The notes beneath the pieces are model-generated. The model had not been told where the DNA came from and did no database searches. It saw nothing but the letters and a program-made list of their open reading frames with translations. DNA of 64,000 bases from Escherichia phage 4E8. The stretch is taken from sequence record OQ689734.1. The stretch is one strand, 5' to 3'. Both the position numbers and the translations under genes were made by a program. Below, piece by piece: positions 9,157 through 46,337 of the stretch (its first letter is position 1; each line of letters starts with the position of its first letter).

Positions 9157-9224
9157 TTTTAAGACCTATACAAGCTAGTGTGTAATGTATATTCTTTGTC
9201 TACATACAACTAGGAGGACAATCT

Positions 9225-12801: not shown

Positions 12802-14988
12802 ATGTCTAGAGAATTAATGCCCAAATCTGGGATAATGATGCCTCATGTTGTTATTAACCGAGATGCTGCAGTAGTGGGTGTATCTACTGTAGATGGGGCC
12901 GCTGGTGCTATCAACTTAACAGAAAAATACCTTCAGAAGTCTGACGCTGAAGCAACCTATCAAACGAAAGCAGAAGGGGCTACTAAGCAATATGTAACCG
13001 ACGCTATCAACCCCATTATGACAAATGCTCTTTTTAAAGATGACCCCTTTGTTAATAATGACACACCTATTCGCTCTGGCGGTGGTAATGGTGTTGAATC
13101 GGTAGATATGATTAAAGTCACCCCTGAGAACACCATCAAACTAGGGAGCTATGCTTCTTCTGTTCAGGGGGTTGAGATTCATTCTGCTGGTCGTCTTCAG
13201 GTTGTTGATCAGAACGATTCTGGAGTCGAAACTAAATATCCGGTATACTCCAAAAGATATCGCCCAGAAGTTGAGGATTTACCTTTCGCTTCAATTGGCT
13301 CCTATGTTAAAGACTCCAAAGGACGCACAATTGGTGTAACTCGTACTGGTATCAACTCTGATATCAAACAGTTTACGCAGAAGGTAACTTTCCAGCAACC
13401 TGTTACTATTCCTGATGCTGTAGGTGATTATGATGCAGTTACACTAAGACAGCTTCGTAACAGTGGTGGAGGTTCTGGTGGTCCTACCATGAGCGGTATC
13501 TCCAACTTTGGTATTGGTGATTTCCATCTTCGTGATAGTCGTGCTTTTATCCCAGCTTTTGAAGTGTTATCTGACGGTCAGCTTCTAAATCGTGCAGACT
13601 ATCCGGACCTGTGGGCTTATGCTCAACTGCTATCCCCAATAACTGATGAGGATTGGCGCTCTTCTATGTATAATAGAGGTAAATATTCCACTGGTGATGG
13701 TTCTACTACTTTCCGCGTTCCTGACAGGAATGGTATCCAAAGGAGTGGTGTTAATGGTTTTGTTGGGGAAGACTCTCTGGGAGCGCTGTATGGTCGAGGT
13801 GATGGTGGAGCTTCGGCTGCGAACGGTCTGGTATTTGATTCAGCTGCACCAAACATCTACGGCAACATTGGCGGCGTGGTAGCCTATGGGCAGACTGGTG
13901 CTATCGTCAGGGGGCAGGAAGAAATGGCTTTGGCACCACAACCCACAACAGGCAATGGTGTTTTAAGAGTAAGTTTGGATGCGTCAAAAGTAAGCCCAAT
14001 TTATGGTCGGTCAAACAGTGAAATCATGGGTCGTAACTTTGTTGGTGTTTGGACTATTCGCGCTCATGGTGGTTTTACTGCTGCTAATACTTCTTGGTCT
14101 GTTATTGATAGTGACTCGACAGAGCCTGCATCCGGAACAGTTGTCAGGGGCGGTAGTGTCAAATCTGAATACAAGATTGGTACAAGCCCAAAATATCAAG
14201 CATATCTTCAGGCATATGGGAAAATTGGTGGGTTAGCAATTGACCGAGGTGCAGTTCTATCAAACGGGGTACAGGAGTGGTTCTTTAATCAAGATGGGAC
14301 TTTGTATTTCCCAGACGCAGAGACGCAAATTGGTACATTAAGGTCTGATGGCGCGTTACATATTAGCGCATACGTCAGGCCAAAGGATATCGTTGTAAAT
14401 CCATTAAACTCTGTTGGGGTTGCAGCTTCAGAAAGAAACGCCATCAGAATGATCAACTACGCAAATGTACCAGAAGGGGGTTATATTAACTCAGTTGGTG
14501 GCGACTGGTACGACGGAACGTGGACCCTCGGTGGGGTTAGGAGTGGTTCAACCTTATTGGACCGTGCACAGCTTAACGTCTATGATGGGCTTAGTGGCAG
14601 TGCCTCGTATTTATTCGGTTCTGACGGCATAGCAAGGTGTCAGGAATGGCGAAGCACATCTGACGAACGGATTAAAAGCAATATTGAGCGTATCAGTGAT
14701 CCACTCTCCAAGATGAAAAACATCAAGGGGGTTACGTGGGTTCTGGAAACCAACGGCTCGGTAGGGTACGGATTCATCGCACAGGACGTAGAGAAGGATT
14801 TTCCTGAAGCTGTATCAGAAATAAAGGCTTCACCAGTCACTCTGCGAGACGGGTCTGTGTTGGACAATGTAAAGTCAGTTAACACCTCGGGAGTTGCTGC
14901 TGCGTTGCACCATGAAGCTATTCTTGAACTTATGAAGCAGGTTGAAGATCTTAAGAAAGAGGTGTCAGAGCTTAAGTCTAGTAAGTAA
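12802..14988 (+). CDS. tail fibre/tailspike with C-terminal intramolecular chaperone (peptidase S74-like) domain
   Basis: 728 aa; C-terminus SDERIKSNIERI...NIKGVTW...GFIAQDVEKDFPEAV matches the auto-cleaving chaperone domain signature (Ser-Lys dyad SDxRxK, GFIAQ). Confidence 0.65.
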   Translation: MSRELMPKSGIMMPHVVINRDAAVVGVSTVDGAAGAINLTEKYLQKSDAEATYQTKAEGATKQYVTDAINPIMTNALFKDDPFVNNDTPIRSGGGNGVESVDMIKVTPENTIKLGSYASSVQGVEIHSAGRLQVVDQNDSGVETKYPVYSKRYRPEVEDLPFASIGSYVKDSKGRTIGVTRTGINSDIKQFTQKVTFQQPVTIPDAVGDYDAVTLRQLRNSGGGSGGPTMSGISNFGIGDFHLRDSRAFIPAFEVLSDGQLLNRADYPDLWAYAQLLSPITDEDWRSSMYNRGKYSTGDGSTTFRVPDRNGIQRSGVNGFVGEDSLGALYGRGDGGASAANGLVFDSAAPNIYGNIGGVVAYGQTGAIVRGQEEMALAPQPTTGNGVLRVSLDASKVSPIYGRSNSEIMGRNFVGVWTIRAHGGFTAANTSWSVIDSDSTEPASGTVVRGGSVKSEYKIGTSPKYQAYLQAYGKIGGLAIDRGAVLSNGVQEWFFNQDGTLYFPDAETQIGTLRSDGALHISAYVRPKDIVVNPLNSVGVAASERNAIRMINYANVPEGGYINSVGGDWYDGTWTLGGVRSGSTLLDRAQLNVYDGLSGSASYLFGSDGIARCQEWRSTSDERIKSNIERISDPLSKMKNIKGVTWVLETNGSVGYGFIAQDVEKDFPEAVSEIKASPVTLRDGSVLDNVKSVNTSGVAAALHHEAILELMKQVEDLKKEVSELKSSK

Positions 14989-14994
14989 TCTAGT

Positions 14995-15013
14995 AGCCCC
15001 TTCGGGGGCTTTA
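14995..15013 (+). terminator. terminator-like hairpin (agcccc TTCG ggggct + TTT)
   Basis: GC stem with UUCG loop after the stop. Confidence 0.4.
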
Positions 15014-15082
15014 GTAGTAAGTATGTTCAAGAAGTAATGAAACTACTATATCACAAAAGGAATACACATAGGAGATACGAAG

Positions 15083-15301
15083 ATGAAAATGATGAAACAA
15101 ATTAGTTATGGGTTAGCTTGTGTTGCTACCGGTTTTGCTGTGTCAGTGGCTGTCCCTGTTAATGCAGTGCACCCCCTGGTCACGCAACCTGCACCAATCG
15201 AGAAGTTAAGTGCATCTTGTAAGCAGCGTACAATTCAGAATAACCTTGTGGTTATCTGTCCGGACTCTGATTCTAGTGCTCTGAGAAACATGCTTCAGTA
15301 A
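15083..15301 (+). CDS. small protein with N-terminal hydrophobic/signal-like segment (possible membrane or secreted lysis-associated protein)
   Basis: 72 aa; MKMMKQISYGLACVATGFAVSVAVPVNA hydrophobic N-terminus; immediately upstream of the lysozyme. Confidence 0.4.
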   Translation: MKMMKQISYGLACVATGFAVSVAVPVNAVHPLVTQPAPIEKLSASCKQRTIQNNLVVICPDSDSSALRNMLQ

Positions 15302-15331
15302 TTTAGGGCTGACTGGAAAGGGAGGTGAGAA

Positions 15332-15823
15332 ATGGATAATGTCGCATTGCCACCGATACAACTGAGCTTAAGCCCAGACGGGATGGAATTCATCATGAAG
15401 CATGAAGGTATGAGAACTCGTGCTTACCAAGATTCCGCAGGTATCTGGACGATATGTGTTGGGGCTACGCGCGATATGAATGGGTATCCAGTAAGACAAG
15501 GATTAACGTATTCTATAGAGGATTGTCTAGCTCTGCTAGATAGAGACACACAAGACTCTGTTCGTGCTACTCAGAAAAATATAAGAGTTCCTATGTTAGC
15601 TCACGAGTTTGATGCTGTCACTTCTTTCAATTTTAATGTTGGTGGTGGTGCTCTTTCAACCTCAAAACTTAGGAAAGTAATCAACGGGGACGTAAAGGGT
15701 GATGTTTATTCAGAGTTCTTACGTTGGGATAAGATAACTGTTAAGGGTGTAAAACAGCAGAGTCCGGGGCTTCACAATCGTAGGGTTGCAGAAGCAGACC
15801 TATACACCACAGGAAAATATTAA
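15332..15823 (+). CDS. GH24 phage lysozyme (endolysin or virion-associated muramidase)
   Basis: 163 aa; HEGMRTRAYQDSAGIWTICVG matches the E...D...T catalytic region of T4/lambda-type lysozymes. Confidence 0.75.
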   Translation: MDNVALPPIQLSLSPDGMEFIMKHEGMRTRAYQDSAGIWTICVGATRDMNGYPVRQGLTYSIEDCLALLDRDTQDSVRATQKNIRVPMLAHEFDAVTSFNFNVGGGALSTSKLRKVINGDVKGDVYSEFLRWDKITVKGVKQQSPGLHNRRVAEADLYTTGKY

Positions 15824-15835
15824 TGGAGGTGCCTT

Positions 15836-16639
15836 TTGGCTATCGAAACAACTGCGGTAGTTACTACCGATTTAAACCCTCTGTACCCACGGGACAGGGA
15901 TTATCTTTATGAAGGGGCTGCCCAGATACGACTGGTCAAACAAGTATTAATTAACACCTTTCCTAACATCACAGAGCCAGTTCAACTTGACTCAGATTCT
16001 TTCAACATCTTAGCAAACAAGGTTTCCTTTACTGGAGATTCTATGGATGTTGGAGGTTTGACGATCAAAAACTTAACTCCGGGAACTGGTGATAAAGATG
16101 CTGTAACCAAAGGTCAGATGGAAGCTTTCATGTTAAACTGGATGCAGAATAAACTCTATCGTATTGGGGCTTACTATATCACTGAAGAAGATATCAACCC
16201 CGGAGATTCTAGCTCTCTTGGTTTTGGTTCTTGGGCTAAAGTAACTGGTGTTGTTATGGGTACTGGTGTTGTTAACCCTGATGGCTCTGTTCCTAATGCT
16301 CAGCGTGTAGAGTTCCAAGCAGGTGGTACTGGTGGTCGTGTATTTAACACAATTCGTGCTGACAACATGCCTCTGACTACAATCAATGGTTCTAGTTTTC
16401 AAGTTAGTTCTTATTCTCACTCACATAATATCACAATGGGTCGTGGAGATGCTAGTGGTCACAACAGCAGTCCTAATTGGTATAGTCCGGGTGGTGGTTA
16501 TACTCAGGTAACTGACACTAACACCCACTCTCACTCAATTACAGGTTCTGTTAGTTTTGGACGTGATGATGTATCAAGACAACCTATTAACACTTTGCCG
16601 CCTTTCAGAGCAGCGCATATCTGGAGACGTATTAGCTAA
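15836..16639 (+). CDS. tail-associated structural protein (TTG start)
   Basis: 267 aa ORF starting at TTG 7 nt after ggagg; G/S/T-rich, inside the tail gene block. Confidence 0.4.
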   Translation: MAIETTAVVTTDLNPLYPRDRDYLYEGAAQIRLVKQVLINTFPNITEPVQLDSDSFNILANKVSFTGDSMDVGGLTIKNLTPGTGDKDAVTKGQMEAFMLNWMQNKLYRIGAYYITEEDINPGDSSSLGFGSWAKVTGVVMGTGVVNPDGSVPNAQRVEFQAGGTGGRVFNTIRADNMPLTTINGSSFQVSSYSHSHNITMGRGDASGHNSSPNWYSPGGGYTQVTDTNTHSHSITGSVSFGRDDVSRQPINTLPPFRAAHIWRRIS

Positions 16640-16648
16640 GGAGGAACT

Positions 16649-19600
16649 ATGGCGCTTTATCCAATAAAATCTTTAGGGGCTGTAGGGGTTATTGCTGACC
16701 AAGCTCCGACTGATTTAGCACCTAATGCTTTCACTAATGCTATCAATGCCCGCTTTGTAGAGCAAAGAGTTTTTAAGACGGGGGGCAATGCCCCTCTTTC
16801 TTATGTAGAAGAAGATAAAGAGATTACACCACTTTCTTTTATATCAATGCCTTTTGACTACTATAGTGCAGGTAATAGCTTTCTGATTGTTGGTACAGAC
16901 AAAAAGCTATACAAGCTAACAGATGAAAGTTTGACAGATATTAGCCGAAAGGTTGCTACTGTCACAAAAAGAGCTTCCGCTTCTATTAAGATATATCCGG
17001 TTGTTTCTCAGATTGTTCCTAAAGAAACTTCTATTTCAATGAATTTCAATCAAACTAAAACCTTGGAAGTTTCTATTCTTCCTGAAGATGCTAACAACAC
17101 AGCTTTAGTTTGGGAGGTTAGTAATTCTTCTTATGGTAAAGTAGAAGCTGATACCGAGAACCCTAAAACTGCAACCTTGACGTCTTATGAAAAAGAAGGG
17201 AATTTAGTAGTTACTGTATCAACAGCTGATAAATCTATTAGTGCTCAGATTGCAGTAAACATCATAGACGGTGATTCTGGTATCTTCTTAAGTCAGGATA
17301 CAATAACTGTCCGCAAAGGTGGTAACACAACGCTAACTGCTGTTACTGGAAAAACTCCTGTAACTTGGGTCTCTAGTAATGCTTCTGTTGTGTCTGTAAC
17401 ACCTAATGCTAATACACTGACAGCTACTTTGTCTGCTAATGGTGAGGGTACTGTAACAATAACTGCTGATAACGGAACTAAGAGTGCTTCTTGTCAAATT
17501 ACTGTTATACCTCAGATAGACAGTATCACTCTGAGTCAGACAAGCGTTCAAATGAGCAGGGGTACTCAGTATGTTTTAACTGCTACGATTAATCCTTCAG
17601 ATGCTCCCAATAAAAGCATAACTTGGACTTCCTCTAATCCTGCCATTGCCACAGTTTCTGGAAATAGTACAGAAGCGGTAATAACAGGGTTACTAGCTGG
17701 GTTTACTGAAATCACAGCTGTTACTCAAGAGGGTGATAGATCAGCAACCTGTACAGTGAGAGTTGATTTAGCTGGGAGAATGATGCGAACTTCTGCAATG
17801 GCTTTATCAGAACCTGTTGTAGATTCTATACAAGAAGAAGAAACCAATAATACTCCTACCGAATCAGAAGAGGTTTTATATTTTGTTAATGAGCCATCTG
17901 GAGTTGATACCTCAGGAATGTATGAAGGTAACAACTTCTATGATTACTCAAACGTCAATGATATGGAAGGTTTTGCACGAGCTGCACTTATGTCCAGCGA
18001 TACTCCGTTGCAATCTTTATCACTAGATATCATCGATGCCTCTCTTGATGTTGGGGAAGATATTGTAATTACAGCCAATGCTTTGCCTGAGGGAGAGTAT
18101 TTCTATCAGTGGACAGTGGACAAAGCAGGATATGTTTCAACCACATCTACTACCGGGAAATCTCTAAAACTGACAGCTATTCGTAAAGGTGAGATCAAAG
18201 TTACTTGTACTGCTAGTCAAATGACTCAGAAAGATTATGATGCTTTTGACGACTATCCTTGGTATCACACCATAATCTCTAACTGTGCAGTGGCTACCAC
18301 TCACTATGAAACACCACAGGTCAAAGAATTTGAATCTGAGTATTTCGTAGATCTTCCGGGATGGGGTGAGCAAACAGTCGTTGATAATGATGGCAACCCT
18401 TCTGTTAAGAAATTTAACTGGAAGTGTGAGCGTATTCGTGCATTCAACAACAGACTTTTTGCTCTGAATATGAGGGAATCTAATGCATCTGGTGTAACTA
18501 CTCACTACCCTCTAAGACTTCGGTGGTCGAATTTCGCTAACGAAAACAAAGCTCCATCTCTTTGGGATGATTATGCTTATGATCGTTTAACAACTTCAGA
18601 CCTATCAGCAAACATTGTTGGTCAAACTGAGGCTTTGGAAAATGGGTACGCTGGGTATATAGATTTAGCAGATTCTAACGGAAGCTTGATTGATGTACTT
18701 CCTCTGAAAGATTACCTTTTTGTTTACACGGAGTTCGAAACCTACATTGGTTCTCCAACCAATAACACATATCAGCCCCTTATGTTTAAGAAGCTGTTTA
18801 ATGACTCTGGCATACTTGCTCCTGAGTGTGCAGTTGAAGTCGAAGGTGGACACTTCGTAGTAACTCAAAATGATGTGATCTTACATAATGGTGCATCTAA
18901 AAAATCTATAGCATCTAACCGAGTCAAGAATCTTCTCATTAATGAGATCTGTCTAGTAAACCCTCTAGCTACTAGAGTTCACCTACACCAAGACAAGAAA
19001 GAGGTTTGGGTTTTATATGTAGGTCCGGGAGAGCCTAAAGAGAGTTTTGCTTGTAATAAAGCCGCTGTTTGGAATTATGAGTTTGACACTTGGTCTTTCC
19101 GTACAATACCATATGCTCAGTGTATTGGGTTAGTCGATCCACCAGTTCTTGAGAGAGGTCCAATCTGGGCAGATTTTCAAGAGATCACTTGGGATGATCC
19201 CTCTATTAACCAATTAGTCTGGAGAAAGGATGCTAATAACTTCCGTCAAAGGATTACAATAGTTGGCTCTTTCCTGAAGGGATTCTATCAAGTGGATGTT
19301 GGTGCTCTGGACTACATCTATGACAGAACCAATGATAGGATTATAGAAAAACCTTTAGAAATGAGGCTAGAAAGAACTGGTATTGATTTTGATAGTGTCA
19401 CTAACGAGTGGAATCAAAAACATATTAATAGATTTAGACCTCAAGTCACTGGTACGGGTACTTATACTTTTGAAGTCGGTGGAAGTCAATTCTCAAACGA
19501 GTATGGACACAATCACTCAACTAAAGAGTTTAAGGTAGGCTCAGACCGTCATGTATCTGTGAGGCTGAACCATCCATACCTATTCTATAATGTTATAGAT

Positions 19601-19669
19601 AATGATGTTAACAGTAATGCTTCTATGAATGGTTTAACCATAGAGTTTAATGTTGGCGGTCGAAGATAA
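16649..19669 (+). CDS. large tail protein with three Big_2-type Ig-like domains
   Basis: 1006 aa; three repeats of the pattern ...tLtatv.P...tn..vtW.Ssn..vAtV...g.vta...G.a.ita... between about residues 120 and 370. Confidence 0.6.
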   Translation: MALYPIKSLGAVGVIADQAPTDLAPNAFTNAINARFVEQRVFKTGGNAPLSYVEEDKEITPLSFISMPFDYYSAGNSFLIVGTDKKLYKLTDESLTDISRKVATVTKRASASIKIYPVVSQIVPKETSISMNFNQTKTLEVSILPEDANNTALVWEVSNSSYGKVEADTENPKTATLTSYEKEGNLVVTVSTADKSISAQIAVNIIDGDSGIFLSQDTITVRKGGNTTLTAVTGKTPVTWVSSNASVVSVTPNANTLTATLSANGEGTVTITADNGTKSASCQITVIPQIDSITLSQTSVQMSRGTQYVLTATINPSDAPNKSITWTSSNPAIATVSGNSTEAVITGLLAGFTEITAVTQEGDRSATCTVRVDLAGRMMRTSAMALSEPVVDSIQEEETNNTPTESEEVLYFVNEPSGVDTSGMYEGNNFYDYSNVNDMEGFARAALMSSDTPLQSLSLDIIDASLDVGEDIVITANALPEGEYFYQWTVDKAGYVSTTSTTGKSLKLTAIRKGEIKVTCTASQMTQKDYDAFDDYPWYHTIISNCAVATTHYETPQVKEFESEYFVDLPGWGEQTVVDNDGNPSVKKFNWKCERIRAFNNRLFALNMRESNASGVTTHYPLRLRWSNFANENKAPSLWDDYAYDRLTTSDLSANIVGQTEALENGYAGYIDLADSNGSLIDVLPLKDYLFVYTEFETYIGSPTNNTYQPLMFKKLFNDSGILAPECAVEVEGGHFVVTQNDVILHNGASKKSIASNRVKNLLINEICLVNPLATRVHLHQDKKEVWVLYVGPGEPKESFACNKAAVWNYEFDTWSFRTIPYAQCIGLVDPPVLERGPIWADFQEITWDDPSINQLVWRKDANNFRQRITIVGSFLKGFYQVDVGALDYIYDRTNDRIIEKPLEMRLERTGIDFDSVTNEWNQKHINRFRPQVTGTGTYTFEVGGSQFSNEYGHNHSTKEFKVGSDRHVSVRLNHPYLFYNVIDNDVNSNASMNGLTIEFNVGGRR

Positions 19670-19675
19670 CAAATA

Positions 19676-19705
19676 GGGGCTTCGGCCCCTTTTATTGTTT
19701 TTTTT
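19676..19705 (+). terminator. rho-independent terminator (ggggc TTCG gcccc + long T-run)
   Basis: perfect 5-bp GC stem, UUCG loop, ttttattgtttttttt. Confidence 0.6.
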
Positions 19706-19719
19706 AATTGGAGGTACTT

Positions 19720-20688
19720 ATGGGTGCTGGAGGTTTTCGAAAGAATACTGGTAGAAACAACACCACACTTCCGTACAATGTTGGTTTTCTAAACAATGTG
19801 CAGGATACAGAAACTTACAACGTTGCTGTCTATGATGAACTACAAAAAGTTAGTACAGCAACCAATCAAATGTTTCAAGCCATTGATGAAATACATGAAG
19901 AAATTGATGTTAGGATTAAAGCTCTTAATGCGATGAATCTTCAATTTGATGAACTTGAAAATAGAATTACTACAGAGATCGAAACAGCTATTGCTGATAT
20001 TCAAACACAGATGGGTAACCTATCCACTGAAGATATTTGGGATAATTCAGTACAACCGCCAGTTAAGCTAGAAAGTTCTATGGCAGGATTTAAGACCTCT
20101 ATAGAAGGTAATGAGGTTAAGATACAATCTGTTGAGGGAATCGTAAACCAGCAGGGAGAGGAAATTGGCTTAGTTCAAACAGAGATCTCTAATATCAACA
20201 GCAGCCTATCTTCTTATATGAAGCTATCTGACTACGAGGCTACGTGGGGGGTTAACTCAAATGTCAACGGTAGGTATGCTGGTGTCAAACTAACTAACAA
20301 TGGCACGAATAGTCAATTCCAAGTAACAGCTAACAAGTTTATTGTCGGTGATGGTAACTCTGGTAACACTCCTTTTGTTTTTGAAGGTGGTAGAGCTAGA
20401 ATGGAATTCGCTGATATCAAGAATGTCAACATTACAACTGCTCAGATTGCTAATGCTCGAATCCAATTTGCTCAGATTGATAACGTGTGGATTCAAGATG
20501 GACAGATTGCTAACCTTACTGCTAACAAGATTACTGCTGGCTCTATGTCCGGTTCTAACTGGAGACTTACAGTAGGTGGAGATTTTGTAATGGGTGGTAC
20601 AGGCGGTTCTCAGTTGTGGATGAACGGTAATAGAATAGATTTTTATGATGGGAGTGGAACTCTTCGCATAAGAATAGGGAGTTGGTAA
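19720..20688 (+). CDS. virion/tail protein; start moved to the ATG at 19720
   Basis: ORF track 19708..20688; ATG at 19720 has a ggagg SD; coiled-coil N-terminus, repeat-like C-terminus (IANARIQFAQIDNVWIQDGQIANLTANKI). Confidence 0.45.
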   Translation: MGAGGFRKNTGRNNTTLPYNVGFLNNVQDTETYNVAVYDELQKVSTATNQMFQAIDEIHEEIDVRIKALNAMNLQFDELENRITTEIETAIADIQTQMGNLSTEDIWDNSVQPPVKLESSMAGFKTSIEGNEVKIQSVEGIVNQQGEEIGLVQTEISNINSSLSSYMKLSDYEATWGVNSNVNGRYAGVKLTNNGTNSQFQVTANKFIVGDGNSGNTPFVFEGGRARMEFADIKNVNITTAQIANARIQFAQIDNVWIQDGQIANLTANKITAGSMSGSNWRLTVGGDFVMGGTGGSQLWMNGNRIDFYDGSGTLRIRIGSW

Positions 20689-20689
20689 T

Positions 20690-21724
20690 ATGGCATATGG
20701 AATATGGACAAGACCTGTTGGTCCGGGTCCGGCGGCACCTGCTGACATTTACATCGATAGTGGTAGCACGTTTCCTCAACTCAAGAATAGAGTTAGCGGT
20801 AACTTTGCATTTAGTGGAAACATTTGTGACCTCCCTATAAACGGGTGGGATGGAAGTGGTCAAATAGTTATTGTCCCAACAGGCTCTGTGGTATGGGAAA
20901 GATATATACCGCCTAATGTGACCTCTGACGTATACTGGATAAATAACATCTCAGTTATTAATAACTCTACTTTTCGAGTTACTATGGATTATAATGTTAA
21001 TGGGTGGATATTTGATATGGCTTTTAATGTGTATCAGATATGGCCTAGAGCTAATAGAAACTACGGAATTACTTTTTCTAACACAGCTGATTACTTCTCT
21101 ATTTCTGACTCTGGTACTGTTGGTCAGTGTATCTGGGCTTGGGAAGGTGACATAAACGGCTCTCTTCAGATACCAGATATTGGAGGTTTTGATATGAGCC
21201 GGGCAACTGTTTATGCAAACTGGAGTCACGGAGGGGCTGGGTTGTTATATAACCCGTCTAACAGGGTTGTTTATGTGTACCAAAACAGGTCTCACGATAA
21301 CAGTAACACAAACCAAACAGGCTATATTGGTGGTGTTAGGATTGCTGTTTTCTGCGATGGTTCTGGGGTACCAACTCACAACGGTGGCCTAAATATCTTT
21401 TCCCCAAATGGGTCTCAGTGCGTATTCTCTACCTACAGAACCCCTTTTAGTGTTGAGGGGTTTATGCCTATGAGTGGAGGTAATACATCTCTGGCCTATC
21501 CAATGATACCACTGTCTTATGGGGCTGGGGCTATACGAGGAAGTGCTAGTGGTTGGTACTTTCAACACACAAGATCTCATATGATGAATGGATCTTCTTT
21601 TGGGACAGGGTATGGAAGAATGATATACTCTTGGTCAAATCGGTATGATCTCGGTGGTGGGGGTGCTCTAGGATTAAGTATTCCGGTATTAGACGCCAAG
21701 AAGATTTTTAGAAGCATACAATAA
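20690..21724 (+). CDS. hypothetical virion protein
   Basis: 344 aa ORF, translationally coupled to the upstream gene. Confidence 0.4.
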   Translation: MAYGIWTRPVGPGPAAPADIYIDSGSTFPQLKNRVSGNFAFSGNICDLPINGWDGSGQIVIVPTGSVVWERYIPPNVTSDVYWINNISVINNSTFRVTMDYNVNGWIFDMAFNVYQIWPRANRNYGITFSNTADYFSISDSGTVGQCIWAWEGDINGSLQIPDIGGFDMSRATVYANWSHGGAGLLYNPSNRVVYVYQNRSHDNSNTNQTGYIGGVRIAVFCDGSGVPTHNGGLNIFSPNGSQCVFSTYRTPFSVEGFMPMSGGNTSLAYPMIPLSYGAGAIRGSASGWYFQHTRSHMMNGSSFGTGYGRMIYSWSNRYDLGGGGALGLSIPVLDAKKIFRSIQ

Positions 21725-21733
21725 GGAGAGGAT

Positions 21734-22531
21734 ATGGATAGGATTTTAGGAGTTTCAGAACTAGACCCACTGGTTCAACAAGCTGCTAAGAAGTATGGTA
21801 TTCCTGCTGCTCTTGTTCATGCGGTGATTCAGAGGGAGTCTAGTGGTAAACCCTCTGCCGCTTCAGGAACAGGGCCAGTAGGATTGATGCAGATTAGTAA
21901 AGGCTTGGCTAAAGATTATGGATATAAACTTGAAGATAGGTTAGACCCTGCAAAGAATATTGACATGGGTGCTAGATATTTAAGAGATAACCTGAAAGCT
22001 TTTGACGGCGATGTGAGGAAGGCTTTGGTGGGGTATTCAGAAGGGACTGGTGGTGCTAAGCAAATGTTTGCTGGTAAGAAAGGGTTTACACCTCAAGCTT
22101 TAGATTCAATGAATAATAAGCTGTTCCTACCATTCTTTGATAAGAATACAGCAGCGGCACAAGTGGCTAATCCTGTAGGTGCTTTGAAAGCAGTACAGCC
22201 TGTGGACCAGTTTGATTCTAATACGCTGACTAGAGAAGGTGCTGCAAACGCTCCTACTCAAGCAGAGATAGCTGCAAGCAAGGCTGGAGCTTTAGGTGGT
22301 CGTCCTGTAGAGTTTTACTCTGATGAACAATCTACTGGGGAAAATCAAAAACCTCAACAGAACTTTGGAAATGCTGTATTGGCAGCTGCTTCTATGCTTG
22401 CAGGAAAACAGCCTAACTCTCAAACCGTACAGAGAGCACATGCCCCTACTCAAGCAGGTTCTCGATACAGTCCACAAACACAAGCCGTGCTGAGACGTTT
22501 GTCTAGCATAGGTACTGATATTTACAGATAA
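21734..22531 (+). CDS. lytic transglycosylase (SLT domain) protein, probably a virion-internal peptidoglycan hydrolase
   Basis: 265 aa; HAVIQRESSGKPSAASGTGPVGLMQI matches the SLT catalytic motif (ES...GxxGLMQ). Confidence 0.7.
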   Translation: MDRILGVSELDPLVQQAAKKYGIPAALVHAVIQRESSGKPSAASGTGPVGLMQISKGLAKDYGYKLEDRLDPAKNIDMGARYLRDNLKAFDGDVRKALVGYSEGTGGAKQMFAGKKGFTPQALDSMNNKLFLPFFDKNTAAAQVANPVGALKAVQPVDQFDSNTLTREGAANAPTQAEIAASKAGALGGRPVEFYSDEQSTGENQKPQQNFGNAVLAAASMLAGKQPNSQTVQRAHAPTQAGSRYSPQTQAVLRRLSSIGTDIYR

Positions 22532-22540
22532 GGAGGACGT

Positions 22541-23593
22541 ATGTCTCTTTTCGGTTCTGCTCCTAAATCTAAGACTACGGTAGCTCCGTCTTCTCAGGTT
22601 GATGCTCTTCTGAAACAGATTGTAGCAAATGCTCAGGCTATGAATCAAAACGATCAAGGTTTTATTGGTCGTAACGTAGCGGGTTTTAATGAAAACCAAA
22701 CAGCAGCTCTTTCTAATTTAGCAAATTCTAACACACTCAACCAACTCAGTCAGATGTACACCCCTAGAACTCAACAAGGGTTGGACCAGATGAATGAGTT
22801 GGCTCAGAAATATCAAAACCTAGTTAATAAAGGTGGTATCACTGCTCAGGATGTTAATAATTTTAGCTCTGGATTGAATAGCTCTGCTTTAGCTAAGTCT
22901 ACAGGTAAAGCTGCTGCTAATGTATCTCTTGGTAATGGTTCTGATTCAGGTTCTCTTAGACGTGCTGCTGCTCAAGGTGCTGCTCTCTCTTCAGCGAATA
23001 CAAACCTTTCTCGTTCTATTCAAGGTAAAAACATGGGTGTTAGCAATCTTATGAATAACAACTCCTATCAGCAAGGTTTGCTCAATGCTCAATCGGGTCT
23101 AGCAAATCAGAATCTGAATCTAGGAGCTGCTGGGGTACAAGCTGGTCAACAGGCAATACAGAATCAGCTCACTGCTGGGAATCTTCAACAACAGCAAGAT
23201 CAACTCCAATCTAACAACAATTGGGAGAATGCTATTGGCAATCAGCAGTATGGTTGGAATCGGCTTAACAACCAGCTTAATGTATTAAACTCAGTAAGCC
23301 CAATGGCTGGGTACACCATTACTAACAAAGGTGCTGCCCCTAATGTTTCACAACAAATCCTTGGTGCTGGGGTTACTGGTCTTGGTATTGCTGGACGTCT
23401 AGGTGCTTTTACCCCTAATCAGCAAACTACTAATGCTTGGAACTCATACAATGCTTCTGGAGGTCAAGCTGGGATGGCTGGTCCTATGATTGGTGGCTCA
23501 AACCTGTCTCAACAGAATGGTCAGAGCAACTGGTTATCTACCGCAGGAAGTAATATCTTAGGTGGTGTTCTAGGAGCCTTTGGAGCAAATTAA
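22541..23593 (+). CDS. Q/N/G-rich internal virion protein (paralog 1)
   Basis: 350 aa low-complexity protein; N-terminus MSLFGSAP..KTT...NQNDQGFIGRNVAGFNENQTAALSNL is similar to the next gene. Confidence 0.4.
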   Translation: MSLFGSAPKSKTTVAPSSQVDALLKQIVANAQAMNQNDQGFIGRNVAGFNENQTAALSNLANSNTLNQLSQMYTPRTQQGLDQMNELAQKYQNLVNKGGITAQDVNNFSSGLNSSALAKSTGKAAANVSLGNGSDSGSLRRAAAQGAALSSANTNLSRSIQGKNMGVSNLMNNNSYQQGLLNAQSGLANQNLNLGAAGVQAGQQAIQNQLTAGNLQQQQDQLQSNNNWENAIGNQQYGWNRLNNQLNVLNSVSPMAGYTITNKGAAPNVSQQILGAGVTGLGIAGRLGAFTPNQQTTNAWNSYNASGGQAGMAGPMIGGSNLSQQNGQSNWLSTAGSNILGGVLGAFGAN

Positions 23594-23602
23594 GGAGGAG
23601 CT

Positions 23603-24571
23603 ATGGCTTTATTCGGTGGTGGGAGTAGCAAGACTACTTCTAAAATGACAAGACCTGACTACATTCAGTCCTATATTGATCAGTTGGTCAATCAGGTTAA
23701 TAACACTAGTTCAGGCGATTATGTGTATCGAGAAAATGTTGGACTTAATCAAAACCAGCAAGAAGCTCTGAACAATCTATCACAATCTGGTGCATTAGGT
23801 GCACTTTCTTCTCAGTATATGGATGCTGCTCAATCTGGCTTAGGTTATCTAGATAACGCATACTCTGGATATAACAACCTATCTAACTCTGGTCAAATCA
23901 CTGGAGAACAGATTGGTGCTCTTGCAGGCCAGCTCTATGACGACGAGGCTGTGCAAGCAGCTATTGCAGCGAATAATGAACAAACCCAACAGAGTTTGGC
24001 TAGGAATGCACTTCCTCAAATCTCTCAGCAGTTTGCTGGTCAGCAAGGTTCTGGTGCACGTATGGCTAAATCTTTTGCTCAGGGTGATGCTCTGAACCAG
24101 ATGCAGAACACAGCAACTAATATTACTAATAGTGCCTATGACTCCGCTCTAACCCAAGCACAGAACATTCTTTCTGGTAATAGACAAACACAAGCATCTG
24201 CTTTAGGTGGTTTATCTAACATTGGCTCCAATCTTGCTAATCTAGGAAACCAAGCTGGTCAGTTATCACAACAGCAAATGATGAATCAGTGGAATGCAGG
24301 ACTGCAACAGCAGCAACAACAGCAATCTGATTTGAACAATGCTTATGAGAATGCTCAGAATGCTGCTAATTGGGGTTGGCAGGATATTAACAATCAACTA
24401 GGTGCTGCCGGGGTTCTTAATGGGGCTTTAGGGACAACCACAACTACTAAAACATCTGGTGGTAGTGGAGGCTTCCTAGGTGGTGCTGCGAGTGGTGCTG
24501 CTGCTGGTTCAGCTTTTGGCCCTTGGGGTGCTTTAGCTGGCGGTGTTATCGGTGGATTAGCTAGCTCTTAA
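23603..24571 (+). CDS. Q/N/G-rich internal virion protein (paralog 2)
   Basis: 322 aa; N-terminus MALFGGGSSKTT...NVGLNQNQQEALNNL parallels the preceding gene. Confidence 0.4.
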   Translation: MALFGGGSSKTTSKMTRPDYIQSYIDQLVNQVNNTSSGDYVYRENVGLNQNQQEALNNLSQSGALGALSSQYMDAAQSGLGYLDNAYSGYNNLSNSGQITGEQIGALAGQLYDDEAVQAAIAANNEQTQQSLARNALPQISQQFAGQQGSGARMAKSFAQGDALNQMQNTATNITNSAYDSALTQAQNILSGNRQTQASALGGLSNIGSNLANLGNQAGQLSQQQMMNQWNAGLQQQQQQQSDLNNAYENAQNAANWGWQDINNQLGAAGVLNGALGTTTTTKTSGGSGGFLGGAASGAAAGSAFGPWGALAGGVIGGLASS

Positions 24572-24585
24572 TTAGGAGAATAATT

Positions 24586-26253
24586 ATGCAACAAACTTCT
24601 TATGCGTATCTTCGCAGTCAAGACCCAAGAAATCAGATTTATGGTGTTAAACAAGGGGCCGCTTCGGCCTCTCCATACATGGCAAGACCTGCTTATCCAG
24701 CTGCTGATGTTTCTATGTATAACCGGAGACCTCCTGCTTCTCCTGTAGGTTTGTCTTCTCTTGTTGCCAATGCTCAAGAAGACCAAGAAGCTATGTTAAA
24801 TCCGGGATTTAGACAGCGCCTTATGGAAGCAGAGAATCAAGGAACTCCTACAAGCCTTCAGGGTATTGATATTGGTGAACCAGCTCCTGCTATGAATAAC
24901 CCAGATCTATCCTCTGATGAGGGTCTACAAGCTGCTGGGTTGATGCCTAGTGACCCACTTCCTGTTACTCCTCCTCGTAAACCTCTGGAAGAAACAGATA
25001 AAGAGTTCTCTCCAGTTCAAGTGGAACAGGCTCAGAATGTTATTAACACTTTAGCTAATAGTAATCCAGCTCCTGAAGGTATGGCTGGTGCAACTCGTGC
25101 TAAAGACCAAGAACGTATTAATAATGATATTATGGAAGTAGCTAAAGCTAAAGACCCAGCACAAGCTTGGAATGAGCTTCAGAAGCAACCGTTCTATCAG
25201 AAGTCTAGTTTCTACACTGGCTTAATGGGTGTTGGTCTTTCTATCATGTCAGGTAAATCCCCTATTGAAGCTTTCCAGATTGGTTCTGGCTTAGCTGCTC
25301 AGGATGAAACTAAACAACAACTAGAAGCCAATCGCGATGCTCTGTTAGAACAAGGCTACTCTCAAGATTCAGTTGCTGCTGCAATTGCTTCGGGAGATCC
25401 TTCTCTTCTCAAGATGCGTCAGATGAGTCCTCAGGAGAAAATGGCTCTTGCTGCTCAGGATGAAGAACGTGCCAATCGTGAGTGGGATAGACGTCAACAG
25501 ATTCAAGAGAATTCGATGCGGGAACGTGCTGCTGAAACTCGTCGTGCTGCTGAAGAACGTGCTAATGCTCAGTTCGAGAAACAGAAAGAACTTATTGGAT
25601 ATCGTGATCAAGTTAAAGCAGAGCGTGCAGAGAAAGCTGCTCAGAGCTTTACTTTCAACCCTAAAGAAGTTCGTCTGGCTCAGAATACAGCAGAAGGTAC
25701 TGTTGCTAAACAGTGGGCAGAAAAAGCAGGTCTGTTTAATCAGTCTCACAAAGACTTGGATTTAGCTGACAAAGCTATTAAAGATAAGGATTATCAAACT
25801 GCTCGTTCTGCTTACATGCAGGCTATCATGAACTCCGCAAGGGCAGAAATTGGTGCTAACCGCTCTCTCCAAGCTGATGACTTGGCTCACTTTGCAGAAG
25901 ACCCGTCAATCTTTGTTAAGGTTGGTAATACTTGGTCCCTTAAAGCAGGTTATCGTCCTTCTGATGCTGCTCTATCATACGCTCGTAAGCAGGCAACTGT
26001 TGGTGCTACTTCCGCTGAGAAAGGTGTGAAGGATGCTAAGAAAGCAACGATCGAAGCGTATATCGGCTCTGGTATGGATAAGAAACGAGCGACAGCTCTT
26101 GTCAACCGTGCTATTCCTTCTGCTGGTTTCTATGACCCATTCGGTACGTTTGAGAGTGAAGCTGAAGCAGCTGTTGGTGGAGATGCTACAAATCCTCGAC
26201 TAACAGGTGCTCTTTCTTCTTCAGCGGCAGATACGAGTTGGATGTTCCAGTAA
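24586..26253 (+). CDS. internal virion protein (hypothetical)
   Basis: 555 aa, coiled-coil/charged central region, in the block between the SLT protein and the giant protein. Confidence 0.4.
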   Translation: MQQTSYAYLRSQDPRNQIYGVKQGAASASPYMARPAYPAADVSMYNRRPPASPVGLSSLVANAQEDQEAMLNPGFRQRLMEAENQGTPTSLQGIDIGEPAPAMNNPDLSSDEGLQAAGLMPSDPLPVTPPRKPLEETDKEFSPVQVEQAQNVINTLANSNPAPEGMAGATRAKDQERINNDIMEVAKAKDPAQAWNELQKQPFYQKSSFYTGLMGVGLSIMSGKSPIEAFQIGSGLAAQDETKQQLEANRDALLEQGYSQDSVAAAIASGDPSLLKMRQMSPQEKMALAAQDEERANREWDRRQQIQENSMRERAAETRRAAEERANAQFEKQKELIGYRDQVKAERAEKAAQSFTFNPKEVRLAQNTAEGTVAKQWAEKAGLFNQSHKDLDLADKAIKDKDYQTARSAYMQAIMNSARAEIGANRSLQADDLAHFAEDPSIFVKVGNTWSLKAGYRPSDAALSYARKQATVGATSAEKGVKDAKKATIEAYIGSGMDKKRATALVNRAIPSAGFYDPFGTFESEAEAAVGGDATNPRLTGALSSSAADTSWMFQ

Positions 26254-26323
26254 TCTAAGACCTAAGTCCTATCTCTTATAATGTATATAGGAGGTAGGAC
26301 ATTTTTATTTATAAGGAGACGTT

Positions 26324-33100: not shown

Positions 33101-33662
33101 TCCAATTTAAATAATCTACTGCATCTTCTACGGTAGAGTCGTTTACTAAATAGTATGTGTTTCTCTGACTGCCTTCGATGTAAGAACGAGAGTCTCCTTC
33201 AAATGAGCAGTCATCACGAAGAATCTGAACTACCTGAACATGGAAATGCTCTTCCAGTTCTGAAACCTCTGCTTTGAATCCACCGTCAGAGAAGACGATA
33301 ACATCTTTCTGCCCTAACAACTGTTGCTTGATACTACTAACAGCCAACTTACCCATACAGGTATCACCAAACATTGGCTTCAAGTAGCTCTCACTAGTTG
33401 CAATCATCAAATCTCGAACTGACTTACCGCCCCACTCAGGACGGCTTCGTTCTTTCCATTCTCGGTCGTTGTACAGCTCCATGAACCCATAAAGAGGGAG
33501 ACCTAATGCAGCAGCAGCCACTCGATACATAGGCTCCTTAAAAGCCTTTACATGCGGTCTAAACTCATCATTACCAGTGGTCTTCTCTAACCAAGCATTA
33601 GCGATTGTATCTTTACCACAACCCGGAGGTCCATTCAGAATTACTACTAATGGTTTACTCAT
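33066..33662 (-). CDS. P-loop nucleotide kinase (dNMP kinase-like)
   Basis: 198 aa; Walker A VILNGPPGCGKDT at the N-terminus. Confidence 0.55.
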   Translation of the reverse strand: MSKPLVVILNGPPGCGKDTIANAWLEKTTGNDEFRPHVKAFKEPMYRVAAAALGLPLYGFMELYNDREWKERSRPEWGGKSVRDLMIATSESYLKPMFGDTCMGKLAVSSIKQQLLGQKDVIVFSDGGFKAEVSELEEHFHVQVVQILRDDCSFEGDSRSYIEGSQRNTYYLVNDSTVEDAVDYLNWIVERTRRDLYV

Positions 33663-34312
33663 TATTGAATCATCCCTTGAAGATCTTCTTTATCAAAGTG
33701 CTTCTCTACTACAGCTTCATACAGATCACGATTCTCTGCATAACGGCGATAGAAGGTTCCGTGTGAAATTCCCAGCTCCTGCTGGATGTGATCATGTGGG
33801 ATACCGAGAAAGAGCATTGAGAACATGCTTGCCATCTTACGGTTTTCCATAATATCACTCAAGTCTTGGAAGAAGAAAAAGATTCTAGATTCCAAGAACG
33901 GGTCTCCAGTAGAATCATGCTTATCCATCGCAATCTCTAAAGGACTTTCCCATGAATTCATCTCAGGAGGTCTAAACATATCAGCCTCTGGAATAGAGTA
34001 GATACGTCGGTCTCCAACTGTCTGACGATTAGAACGAATCGACCAGATGATATTCTTGACACGATAAGTCATGTGCTCAATATCTTTTTCATCAGTGAGC
34101 AGAAGTTCTTCTTGCTTTGCAAATACAAAACGCCAAGCGTTCAGTAACACTTCCTGAGCAACATCCTCTGCCTCGTGATAATCTTTAATGTCATACATAA
34201 AATACTTATGCACAACTTTCCAGTTCTCTCGATAAAATTCATCGAAGGTTGGATAATACTTAATAGGAATGCCATGAATACGATAGCGTGTAGGTGTTGT
34301 CTTTTTCTTCAT
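33662..34312 (-). CDS. putative phage sigma factor (ECF-like sigma-70 family)
   Basis: 216 aa; region-2-like [19 protein letters not shown] and C-terminal HTH-like [16 protein letters not shown]; no phage RNAP gene in the window. Confidence 0.5.
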
Positions 34313-34336
34313 AAGTCATCCTTAACTTACTTTACA

Positions 34337-34561
34337 TTAAACTACACAGAACAAATACATTGCTGTGTCAGGACAAGGGATGTGATCACTAGGTTGCCTA
34401 ATTCTATCCCATTCATCATCTTCTGCTATATAATAAGCCCAATAAGACTCACCATCGTTGATGAAGAATTTGAATGTTCGTCCCCAAATCTGATTATTAT
34501 GTTCCCATACTGCATGAAACTGAGTAACACCTTCTGGTATTGTAAGTTCCGCTCTGATCAT
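34337..34561 (-). CDS. hypothetical small protein
   Basis: 74 aa ORF. Confidence 0.3.
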   Translation of the reverse strand: MIRAELTIPEGVTQFHAVWEHNNQIWGRTFKFFINDGESYWAYYIAEDDEWDRIRQPSDHIPCPDTAMYLFCVV

Positions 34562-34818
34562 TGTATCCCTCTCTCCTTGAGAGCTTTAAGCAAACCATTG
34601 TGGTTAGCGGCACAGGTTGTATAATTATCCTGATACCACTCAAGTGTTGTTGCAAATGCCACTCCCTGTGCACTCTGAAGTAAAGGGAGGTCTACATCAC
34701 ACTCAGCTTTTAGGTTTGTTGGTAAGGGCACTAGCTGCCTGCTGTTGTCGCTCATTGAACAAGCTGACATACTCATCGCTAGCACACACATTGTAAAAAA
34801 CTGGCTTAGTCTTTTCAT
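34558..34818 (-). CDS. outer-membrane spanin lipoprotein (Rz1-like o-spanin)
   Basis: 86 aa; signal peptide with lipobox MSAC; gene overlaps the 3' part of the upstream i-spanin-like gene in another frame. Confidence 0.55.
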   Translation of the reverse strand: MKRLSQFFTMCVLAMSMSACSMSDNSRQLVPLPTNLKAECDVDLPLLQSAQGVAFATTLEWYQDNYTTCAANHNGLLKALKERGIQ

Positions 34819-35050
34819 AATGCATCTCTTTGTAAACAGTTTCCGTGTTCTTCTTCCAGTTTGATAAACCAGTTAGAACTTTCTGAGCCACTTCATCAGC
34901 AGCCTTAGCTCTCTCAATCTCAATCTCTTGCTGTTTCTTCTCTTGGTCAAGAGCATTGCTGTCATTTCGATATTGCTCAAACTTGACACCACCAAAGAAA
35001 ACCAGAGCTGTGAAGATTAAAAAACCTATATTGTTTTGAAGCTTTTCCAT
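34703..35050 (-). CDS. inner-membrane spanin (Rz-like i-spanin); start set to MEKLQNN with GGAG SD
   Basis: N-terminal TM segment IGFLIFTALVFFGGV followed by a charged coiled coil; the o-spanin gene is embedded at its 3' end. Confidence 0.5.
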   Translation of the reverse strand: MEKLQNNIGFLIFTALVFFGGVKFEQYRNDSNALDQEKKQQEIEIERAKAADEVAQKVLTGLSNWKKNTETVYKEMHYEKTKPVFYNVCASDEYVSLFNERQQQAASALTNKPKS

Positions 35051-35061
35051 TTTAACTCCAA

Positions 35062-35086
35062 CGAAAAAAGCCACCCGAAGGTGGCT
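35062..35086 (-). terminator. minus-strand terminator (agccacc UUCG ggtggc + U-run)
   Basis: inverted repeat gccacc cgaa ggtggc preceded on the plus strand by AAAAAA; downstream of the 35109..35849 gene. Confidence 0.5.
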
Positions 35087-35108
35087 AAGCTATTACAAGG
35101 AGAGATTC

Positions 35109-35849: not shown

Positions 35850-36394
35850 ATTAATATTTCCTTATATAAATTTAAGATTGTTGCTCTCTTTGAGCGGTTT
35901 GTATACTATATACATTACACTTATACAGATAAGGTTCTATTATACTATAACCTTTTTGGTAGTAGATAATAACAAATAGTAATGTATATATGGTATAGCT
36001 AGTAAAGCTATTGCAGGCTTGTATATTGGGCAATTCATAGAATCCCTTGCAAGTACCGAAGGGCAGGAGCCACCTGCGAGATAAAAATAGAGAATTAAGG
36101 AATCCTTGATTTAGGTTGTAGGGACTCCTAGGGACTTTGATTCTCTATTTAAAAGAATATTAATTACTTACTACCTAAATAATTAACTAACTTACTTAAA
36201 CCAAATTCAAGAATAATAGATAAAAAGATTATTCCTAAGAAAGCTAAAAAGTAAAGGATATAAGTTACCATTCAAGTAAACCTTTAAAGTTAGTTTGTTC
36301 TACTATCCTCTGATAACGAAGATTAGAATCAGCTTGTTTCTTTAACATCTCATTATATTTATCTCTGATAGAGTCTTTATAAACTACAGGTTCT

Positions 36395-37469: not shown

Positions 37470-37702
37470 TTAACTTCCTCAATATCAACTAATTCAAAAC
37501 TCCCTATTTCTTCACGCTGGATAATCTCTTTAACCTTCTCAACAGCTTTAATAGGGTTCTCTTCTTCTACAACTTTACACCCCGATACGACGAGACTTCC
37601 TTGCCCACGGAGAAGCATTCTTAACTTATAAATCACTTTGTAATATTTCACCTTGATAAAACCCTTCCCCATTCCTTGATGTAACAGCGACCATCGACCC
37701 AC
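37466..37702 (-). CDS. hypothetical small protein
   Basis: 78 aa ORF, 4-nt overlap with the downstream gene. Confidence 0.3.
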   Translation of the reverse strand: MGRWSLLHQGMGKGFIKVKYYKVIYKLRMLLRGQGSLVVSGCKVVEEENPIKAVEKVKEIIQREEIGSFELVDIEEVK

Positions 37703-37823
37703 TTGGTCTCTGATTTAAACTCTTGAGAGATTCTTGTTTCACAGTCTTCTTTGCTAGCATCCCCAAGAGCATCCATCACCCAAAGAAACAGAGCAATTAC
37801 AATAGACCAGATTAGAAACTTCT

Positions 37824-46142: not shown

Positions 46143-46328
46143 TTATAGCATACAAAGAATAATAACAAGAGGTAGTGTTATAGCAAAATGTACCAGAACA
46201 ACACTACCAAGCTTGATAGCTTTAACATCCTCTTCTGCTGGGTTTTCTTTAATTGCTAAATTTCGAGCTTTATATATAACAGTACCAACTATTAATGACC
46301 ACACGGCCCACACAATCAGTGAAATCAT
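46143..46328 (-). CDS. small two-TM membrane protein (paralog 1)
   Basis: 61 aa; two hydrophobic segments; similar to the upstream gene (AIVWSVWAILVGGIVY / LIVWAVWSLIVGTVIY, KENP). Confidence 0.4.
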   Translation of the reverse strand: MISLIVWAVWSLIVGTVIYKARNLAIKENPAEEDVKAIKLGSVVLVHFAITLPLVIILCML

Positions 46329-46337
46329 ATCAAACCC

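Follow-up and report, generated by a model that had tools for sequence, protein, structure and literature searches.

Likely split of entry and exit functions between two muralytic enzymes of Escherichia phage 4E8, with a caveat on the putative holin

Genes at the Locus

We analysed a stretch of 64,000 nucleotides from Escherichia phage 4E8 (sequence record OQ689734.1), called the window below, with a focus on the segment from 15083 to 22531, in which a first-pass annotation made from the sequence alone had noticed two distinct muralytic enzymes inside the tail/virion block. When positions 15000-23000 were searched by megablast, 98 phage records were matched, all of them Escherichia or Shigella podophages of the Gordonclarkvirinae (phiEco32, SU10, KBNP1711, SU7 and kin), the best being vB_EcoP-101114UKE3 (hereafter UKE3; Suseptimavirus) with 96.6% identity over the full 8 kb. 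The source DNA is that of a phiEco32/SU10-like podophage of this subfamily. In the RefSeq record of the nearest relative, the three genes that concern us already bear the names “holin”, “endolysin”, and “transglycosylase”, and an “Rz-like spanin” is found on the opposite strand. These three genes, together with the two fibre genes that flank the first pair, are the following:

15083..15301, + strand: 72-amino-acid (aa) putative holin, PHROG 11161, directly upstream of the lysozyme
15332..15823, + strand: soluble GH24 (T4-lysozyme-type) endolysin, 163 aa, recognised by PF00959, the catalytic triad, and homology to SU10 gp15
21734..22531, + strand: virion-internal, ejected lytic transglycosylase by homology to SU10 gp20, 265 aa, PF01464
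12802..14988, + strand: long tail fibre, distal part (SU10 gp13 homologue, 55% identity), upstream neighbour of the pair formed by the 72-aa gene and the lysozyme
15836..16639, + strand: short tail fibre (SU10 gp16 homologue, 83% identity; PF21939 Gp10_C), downstream neighbour of the lysozyme

The open reading frames (ORFs) are where the first-pass annotation had put them, PF00959 and PF01464 match the two enzymes far beyond chance, and the lysozyme does lie between tail-fibre genes, as both flanking homologies indicate; SU10 gp13, the distal part of the long fibre, is a virion component.

A Probable Endolysin and a Probable Ejection Enzyme

The lysozyme scores E=6.4e-31 against PF00959 Phage_lysozyme (107.7 bits, for a cut-off of 22.3), and the GH24 triad Glu-8x-Asp/Cys-5x-Thr is satisfied by E25, D34, and T40 within HEGMRTRAYQDSAGIWT. 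Its nearest solved structures are phage endolysins, 8app (4e-28) and 7m5i (6e-24), and the comparison with Pfam and PDB shows a catalytic domain alone, devoid of any attachment domain. The protein is 90% identical to SU10 gp15, which is also 163 aa long, and it is found in 98 of about 99 subfamily records; outside the subfamily, its nearest kin are in Felix O1-like myophages, at about 40% identity. A scan of Kyte–Doolittle hydropathy over 19 residues (KD19) gave a maximum of only 0.83 for the whole protein (residues 4-22; N-terminus MDNVALPPIQLSLSPDG), and neither a signal-arrest-release (SAR) or signal-anchor segment nor a signal peptide was seen in it. The lysozyme, having no export signal, would thus need a large-hole holin to reach its substrate.

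The place of the enzyme in the infection cycle can be judged from SU10. According to the cryo-EM paper on SU10 (its Supplementary Table 1), the proteins gp14 (“Holin”) and gp15 (“Lysin”) are neither virion proteins nor detected by mass spectrometry (MS), and in the virion structure no density or model is given to gp15. Earlier shotgun proteomics of SU10 had used a crude polyethylene glycol (PEG) preparation, in which gp20-24 were detected and gp14, gp15, and gp19 were not; even the terminase, the DNA polymerase, and the sigma factor showed up in this preparation. In the nearest relative, whose genome is complete, no second lysin or holin is annotated. Thus, neither a virion-borne homologue of the lysozyme nor a separate endolysin/holin cassette was found, SU10 gp15 being a non-virion protein and the nearest genome carrying no second annotated cassette.

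The second enzyme matches PF01464 SLT with E=7.7e-26; the domain covers residues 8-118 and is followed by a low-complexity tail. Its best PDB matches are the lytic transglycosylase (LT) domain of T7 gp16 (6yt5/7eyb), its catalytic residues E35-S36 align with E37-S38 of that protein, and the GLMQ and GYSEG motifs are also there. It is 82% identical to SU10 gp20, listed as “Transglycosylase” and, with gp21-24, among the virion proteins in Supplementary Table 1 of the cryo-EM paper. As SU10 gp20-24 are gone from the genome-release intermediates, they are ejection proteins, and the authors of that study give peptidoglycan degradation at entry to gp20. In 4E8, the homologues of the four other ejection or internal proteins come directly after the SLT gene, which agrees with the first-pass statement that this enzyme lies among internal virion proteins:

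22541-23593, + strand: SU10 gp21 homologue, 77% identical to it
23603-24571, + strand: SU10 gp22 homologue
24586-26253, + strand: SU10 gp23 homologue
26324-30769, + strand: SU10 gp24 homologue

The sizes of these four proteins agree with those of SU10 gp21-24. PHROG 4287 “DNA ejection protein” is matched by both 22541-23593 and 23603-24571, which makes the gp21- and gp22-like proteins paralogues of each other.

Because of the SU10 proteomics and of the lack of any other annotated lysin or holin in the nearest genome, we read the lysozyme as the endolysin and the SLT protein as the entry enzyme, a division of labour that we consider almost certain. The lysozyme is, as far as its absence from the virion can be carried over from SU10, a non-structural cytoplasmic endolysin, and the SLT protein is, by homology to SU10 gp20, an ejection enzyme; the phage has two muralytic enzymes because one acts at the beginning of an infection and the other at its end. 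Domains, catalytic residues, the lack of a SAR segment, synteny, and phyletic universality were all seen in the present analysis, and presence in or absence from the virion comes from the literature on a close homologue. It must be counted against our reading that the evidence on virion composition is transferred in its entirety from SU10, another phage than 4E8.

Taken as a whole, the 4E8 arrangement is very likely the published split lysis-and-entry toolkit of phiEco32/SU10-type podophages. Both enzymes, their positions, and their roles are already known from these phages, and three publications state that holin and endolysin sit amid the morphogenesis genes of Kuraviruses. The discovery value is therefore small, separate muralytic enzymes for entry and exit being the norm in podophages, and our only addition is a caveat on the holin label, set out below.

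The 72-aa Protein as Candidate Holin

The gene at 15083-15301 is preceded by a good Shine–Dalgarno sequence, AGGAG, and its product was rightly described at first pass as a small protein with a hydrophobic N-terminus: a single hydrophobic stretch covers about residues 7-29, with a KD19 maximum of 1.91, a value that falls within the ranges of signal peptides, SAR domains, and transmembrane domains (TMDs) alike. Summed Hessa-type and KD window scores were not used, as the TMDs of lambda S105 and T7 gp17.5 scored no better than signal peptides. The protein matches PHROG 11161 “holin” (1.8e-46), a label that is annotation only, and is 73% identical to SU10 gp14, which has the same length.

The layout of the family was derived by aligning 18 close homologues and 2 remote ones (P0025 and P0026). 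A basic n-region (MKMMKQ) is followed by a weakly hydrophobic helical segment of about 20 residues (within 7-28) rich in Gly, Ala, Ser, and Thr, a Pro-rich variable linker (29-40), and a near-invariant C-terminal module, KLSxxCKQRTIQNNLVVICPDxxSxxLR, in which the invariant Cys46 and Cys59 flank a predicted beta-hairpin. At the end of the hydrophobic segment is a conserved small-x-small motif in which A28 never varies; the 18 close relatives have P25-V26-x-A28 here. Within the segment runs an invariant stripe, Y9-G10, C13, G17, S21, and A28, with a periodicity of 90-100 degrees, which is kept down to 39-56% identity; its persistence in the remote relatives argues that the helix is functional, more than a targeting signal. 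By the positive-inside rule, the C-terminus is periplasmic, and this tail, with its two invariant Cys, has a modest charge. Two further possibilities were considered for the N-terminus and set aside. A lipobox at C13 was rejected against the pattern [LVI][ASTVI][GAS]C behind a sufficient h-region, as C13 is preceded by G-L-A (V, L, or I at -1 in homologues) and has only 12 residues before it, and a lambda-S-like dual start in M1-K2-M3-M4 is not conserved in the family (e.g., MKILKQ, MKTLKQ) and is probably non-functional.

The 72-aa gene is present in 99/99 subfamily phage records, and the only lysis candidates that are universal in these roughly 99 records are the 72-aa protein (99), the lysozyme (98), and the i-spanin (98). 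It lies directly upstream of the lysozyme in UKE3, in SU10, and in the divergent metagenomic relatives L004 and L005. This order holds in L004 despite different upstream fibre genes and a lysozyme of only 58% identity. When 1.84 billion representatives were searched with a profile, just two more true relatives came up, the remote homologues mentioned above, which are in SU10-like contigs or have the same architecture, and no homologue was found outside SU10-like phages, Felix O1-like myophages included.

Being universal and adjacent to an endolysin that is soluble, in a window where the other small membrane ORFs are patchy in distribution, the 72-aa protein is the best holin candidate, and we think it on balance probable that this putative holin serves the lysozyme. 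The proposal made at first pass, i.e., that the lysozyme is the endolysin and its hydrophobic neighbour a holin candidate, accords with every line of evidence and with the way these genes are already annotated; the accompanying remark that no canonical holin is adjacent is fair as well, the adjoining 72-aa protein being atypical and called a holin by annotation.

Two other loci were tried as universal holins and rejected. The first consists of tandem paralogues at 46143-46559(-), detectable in 50 of about 99 records and devoid of a charged C-terminal tail; these proteins (46143-46328(-) and 46338-46559(-)) have two strongly hydrophobic TMDs each, belong to PHROG 9296 (unknown function), and are possibly accessory membrane proteins for exclusion or host takeover. 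The second is a 59-aa membrane protein at 37648-37827(-), detectable in 69 of about 99 records. It has a strong N-terminal TMD and a small C-terminal domain with two Cys, is assigned to PHROG 14089 (unknown function), and has its gross architecture in common with the 72-aa protein.

A number of points weigh against the holin assignment. Searched against Pfam and NCBIfam, the 72-aa protein, its remote homologues, and the other small membrane ORFs gave no holin family at E<=10, and no functional test of the 72-aa “holin” was found in the searchable literature. The AlphaFold2 model (pLDDT, its per-residue confidence, of 54; pTM, its predicted template-modelling score, of 0.20) is too poor for a fold search. 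A charged cytoplasmic C-terminal tail, a classical holin feature, is not to be seen in this protein. Its best-conserved part is the extramembrane C-terminal tail, the hydrophobicity of its segment is only moderate and, in our crude scan, like that of the OmpA signal peptide and the T4 RI SAR domain, and the conserved site at A28 resembles a signal-peptidase site.

Alternative Explanations

The last three of these points speak for the alternative that survives best, although we regard it as unlikely: the 72-aa protein would be an exported or SAR-type periplasmic regulator, i.e., a small Sec-exported lysis regulator or muralytic-enzyme inhibitor (antiholin-like or Spackle-like), not a hole-former. 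Two forms can be envisaged: the protein could be cut at A28|V29 to leave a peptide of 44 aa stapled by a disulfide, or it could have a SAR-type anchor that can be released, as in T4 RI. The n/h/c organisation of the N-terminus is that of a signal peptide, including the P25-V26-x-A28 site that is invariant in the 18 close relatives, and the KD19 of its Gly/Ala/Ser/Thr-rich h-region (1.91) is near those of the OmpA signal peptide (1.84) and T4 RI (1.75). The C-terminal module, the most conserved part, carries its two invariant Cys on a predicted beta-hairpin, and the holin role, with no match to a curated holin family, rests on annotation. On the other hand, a stripe (Y9, G10, C13, G17, S21) kept at 39-56% identity would be unusual in a disposable signal peptide, P25 is lost in the remote homologues, and P0026 has no basic n-region. 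Strict adjacency to a soluble endolysin is a classical holin signature, no second small membrane protein of the window has a subfamily-wide distribution, and superinfection exclusion is a poor match for a protein expressed late. Were the 72-aa protein such a regulator after all, the holin that frees the soluble GH24 endolysin in about 100 Gordonclarkvirinae phages would be some other protein. This matters for annotation hygiene, as these phages are frequent candidates for therapy and biocontrol and they owe the name “holin” only to the place of the gene and a single hydrophobic segment.

A milder variant keeps the holin function: the 72-aa protein would indeed be a holin, of a new and minimal type that differs from IIIa and IIIb, with one TMD, next to nothing on the cytoplasmic side, and a small hairpin in the periplasm. 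Known holin classes would be modestly extended if a single-pass protein of 72 aa with a periplasmic Cys-hairpin turned out to be a large-hole holin.

The first-pass annotation had also left room for the lysozyme to be a second virion-associated hydrolase, in other words a tail-associated lysin, as could be suggested by the position of its gene, which has the long-fibre gene on one side and the short-fibre gene on the other and belongs to the late structural operon. Two independent MS studies contradict this: SU10 gp15, 90% identical to it, is missing from purified virions and from the crude PEG preparation, and the SU10 virion structure gives it neither density nor model. Moreover, the lysozyme is a bare catalytic domain without an attachment domain and the virion already carries the SLT enzyme, so that we deem this explanation very improbable. 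More improbable still is the pinholin once envisaged for the small protein, which would merely depolarise the membrane for a self-releasing SAR-endolysin: the 72-aa helix is small and weakly hydrophobic, with a face resembling a glycine zipper, but the lysozyme has no SAR or signal-anchor segment of any kind, and characterised pinholins have two TMDs where the 72-aa protein has one.

Transcription Signals and Spanins

The late-promoter motif published for the phage sigma factor is tAATGTATAtA, and in SU10 it is found between CDS10 and CDS11 (PMC4281155). Three occurrences in the window, as well as the spanin genes, are relevant here:

9183..9191, + strand: late promoter motif TAATGTATA, exact match, with a strong terminator hairpin before it and the adaptor gene after it
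26279..26287, + strand: second late promoter motif, preceding the gp24 homologue
35909..35917, - strand: exact copy of TAATGTATA, presumed phage-sigma middle promoter, upstream of the spanin-carrying operon
34703..35050, - strand: i-spanin, with an N-terminal TMD and a charged helical periplasmic domain (PHROG 1152 Rz-like spanin, 1.5e-36)
34558..34818, - strand: o-spanin, with a lipoprotein signal and the lipobox MSAC (C20), and a weak match to the Rz-like PHROG 456

The late operon that starts at 9183 takes in the 72-aa gene, the lysozyme, and the SLT gene. With the lysozyme and the spanins under separate motifs, the lysis genes are split between two transcription units. A scan for sigma-70 promoters over 12.5-23 kb showed no enrichment (21 sites vs 21.9 expected).

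The o-spanin and i-spanin genes overlap by 116 nt, and 34558-35050(-) is a two-component spanin pair; separated from the lysozyme by 18.7 kb and encoded on the opposite strand, it is where the first-pass annotation had seen it. The i-spanin, found in about 98 subfamily records, is a distant kin of the Felix O1 spanins (about 37% identity over the C-terminal half), and Felix O1-like and phiEco32 i-spanins are placed in the same family in PMC6139136, where the phiEco32 spanins, including the o-spanin family of phiEco32, KBNP1711, ECBP2, and NJ01, are listed. In the nearest RefSeq record, the o-spanin is left as a “hypothetical protein”.

The spanins belong to an apparent operon, 33662-35849(-), which also comprises an upstream gene for a 246-aa protein (PHROG 6599, unknown function), a gene for a 74-aa protein, and, directly downstream of the spanin pair, the gene of a phage sigma factor of the extracytoplasmic function (ECF) type. 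The lysozyme and the i-spanin are both nearest to proteins of Felix O1-like myophages, whose lysin also adjoins a tail protein gene; such resemblances suggest that the lysis genes of phiEco32/SU10-like and Felix O1-like phages may have a shared ancestry or have been exchanged.

Proposed Course of Entry and Lysis

In the model that we favour, the SLT protein would be packaged in the head with the four other ejection proteins. Upon infection, it would be expelled through the nozzle and cut the peptidoglycan locally, after which a trans-periplasmic DNA channel would form, as was shown in SU10; its job would be that of the N-terminal transglycosylase domain of T7 gp16. Late in the cycle, the structural operon would give rise to the cytoplasmic GH24 lysozyme and to the 72-aa membrane protein, predicted to cross the inner membrane once, N-in/C-out. 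The latter would accumulate, oligomerise through the small-residue face of its helix, and trigger late, whereby the lysozyme would be released. The i-/o-spanin pair, about 19 kb off in the middle-gene block, would then fuse or disrupt the outer membrane, as expected from what is known of the family. In this explanation, holin function and topology, promoter use, and timing are what we infer.

Comparison with Known Systems

The closest parallel is the gp14-gp15 cassette of SU10/phiEco32 (Kuravirus), which is like that of 4E8 in gene order, in sizes (72 and 163 aa), and in its place between fibres. These phages are of another genus, the 4E8 backbone being Suseptimavirus-like, and the 72-aa allele of 4E8 is of the KBNP1711/Bas89 type, unlike that of its nearest genome. 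The SLT protein shares with SU10 gp20 and T7 gp16 the fold, the catalytic Glu-Ser, and a location among internal-protein genes, and would resemble them in being packaged in the head and ejected. The LT domain of T7, however, is the N-terminus of a core protein of 1318 aa, whereas the 4E8 enzyme stands alone with 265 aa and, unlike in T7 gp16, channel-forming functions would reside on separate proteins, the gp21-24 homologues.

The lysis layout of T7 is also dispersed: holin gene 17.5 comes directly after tail-fibre gene 17, the spanin genes are 18.5/18.7, the amidase gene 3.5 is elsewhere, and the muralytic enzymes are the gp16 transglycosylase and the gp3.5 amidase. T7 thus resembles 4E8 in its scattered lysis genes, in a small holin gene after a tail-fibre gene (putative in 4E8), and in a separate virion transglycosylase; the distant lysis gene is that of the endolysin (amidase) in T7, whereas it is the spanins that lie apart in 4E8. 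T7 gp17.5 and the 72-aa protein have no sequence similarity and no family in common.

Class III holins have a single TMD, N-in/C-out, and comprise type IIIa (T4 gpt homologues) and type IIIb (phiKZ gp142-like) (PMC12894885). In the curated record of phage Paul (MN045231), the 72-aa homologue is named “holin class III”, but only the predicted topology is common to this class and the 72-aa protein, which has no homology to gpt or gp142. The soluble parts also differ, with 6 aa in the cytoplasm and 44 aa in the periplasm for the 72-aa protein, and a large regulatory domain in IIIa/IIIb.

The T4 antiholin RI and T4 Spackle are small exported periplasmic regulators. Like them, the 72-aa protein has a signal- or SAR-like N-terminal segment and a small periplasmic domain that contains Cys. 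There is, however, no sequence similarity between them, and 4E8 is devoid of a gpt-type holin partner; moreover, unlike the T4 genes, the 72-aa gene is late, sits in an endolysin cassette, and encodes a helix with a conserved face.

Local Mosaic and Other Observations

Two elements precede the 72-aa gene:

14990..15014, + strand: GC-rich UUCG hairpin (-13.9 kcal/mol, z = -2.2), partial terminator or RNA-stability element
15032..15052, + strand: conserved box of 21 nt, AAGTAATGAAACTACTATATC, unique in the window and some 30 nt ahead of the 72-aa gene

The hairpin, directly 3' of the fibre gene, is kept in UKE3, in SU10, and in L005, with compensatory changes in the stem of the latter. The box is kept in UKE3, SU10, and a distant metagenomic relative while its flanks diverge, and it is possibly an internal promoter or a regulatory element for the lysis cassette. 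Both are absent from L004, the most remote relative, in which the genes abut.

The same region is part of a mosaic patch, 14960-15455, that diverges strongly from UKE3 (about 97% identical elsewhere). It runs from the 3' end of the distal fibre gene through all of the 72-aa gene to about 120 nt into the lysozyme gene, inside which identity to UKE3 recovers. The 72-aa allele is 100% identical to that of Bas89, 98.6% to that of KBNP1711/ECBP2, and 68% to that of UKE3. Judged from these sequences, the patch looks like a fibre-tip recombination that brought the “holin” along.

Among the internal-protein genes, the gp21- and gp22-like proteins (22541-24571, +) are rich in Gln, Asn, Gly, and Ala and contain no Cys; their C-terminal tails are Gly/Ala-rich and moderately hydrophobic (e.g., GGFLGGAASGAAAGSAFGPWGALAGGVIGGLASS) and could be the parts of the translocation channel that insert into the membrane. 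The gene that separates the tail needle gene from the SLT gene (20690-21724, +) encodes a 344-aa DUF6453 protein, named “membrane protein” in PHROGs and RefSeq. No hydrophobic segment was found in it (maximum KD19 0.86), and it is 62% identical to SU10 gp19, a non-virion protein; a role in assembly is possible, and “membrane protein” is apparently a misnomer.

Finally, a 65-aa ORF at 53300-53497(-), for which neither PHROG nor NCBIfam gave a match, starts with an evident signal peptide (MKKILFFLSLFSVSAIA|AD), contains six Cys in its mature part, and is a putative secreted early protein.

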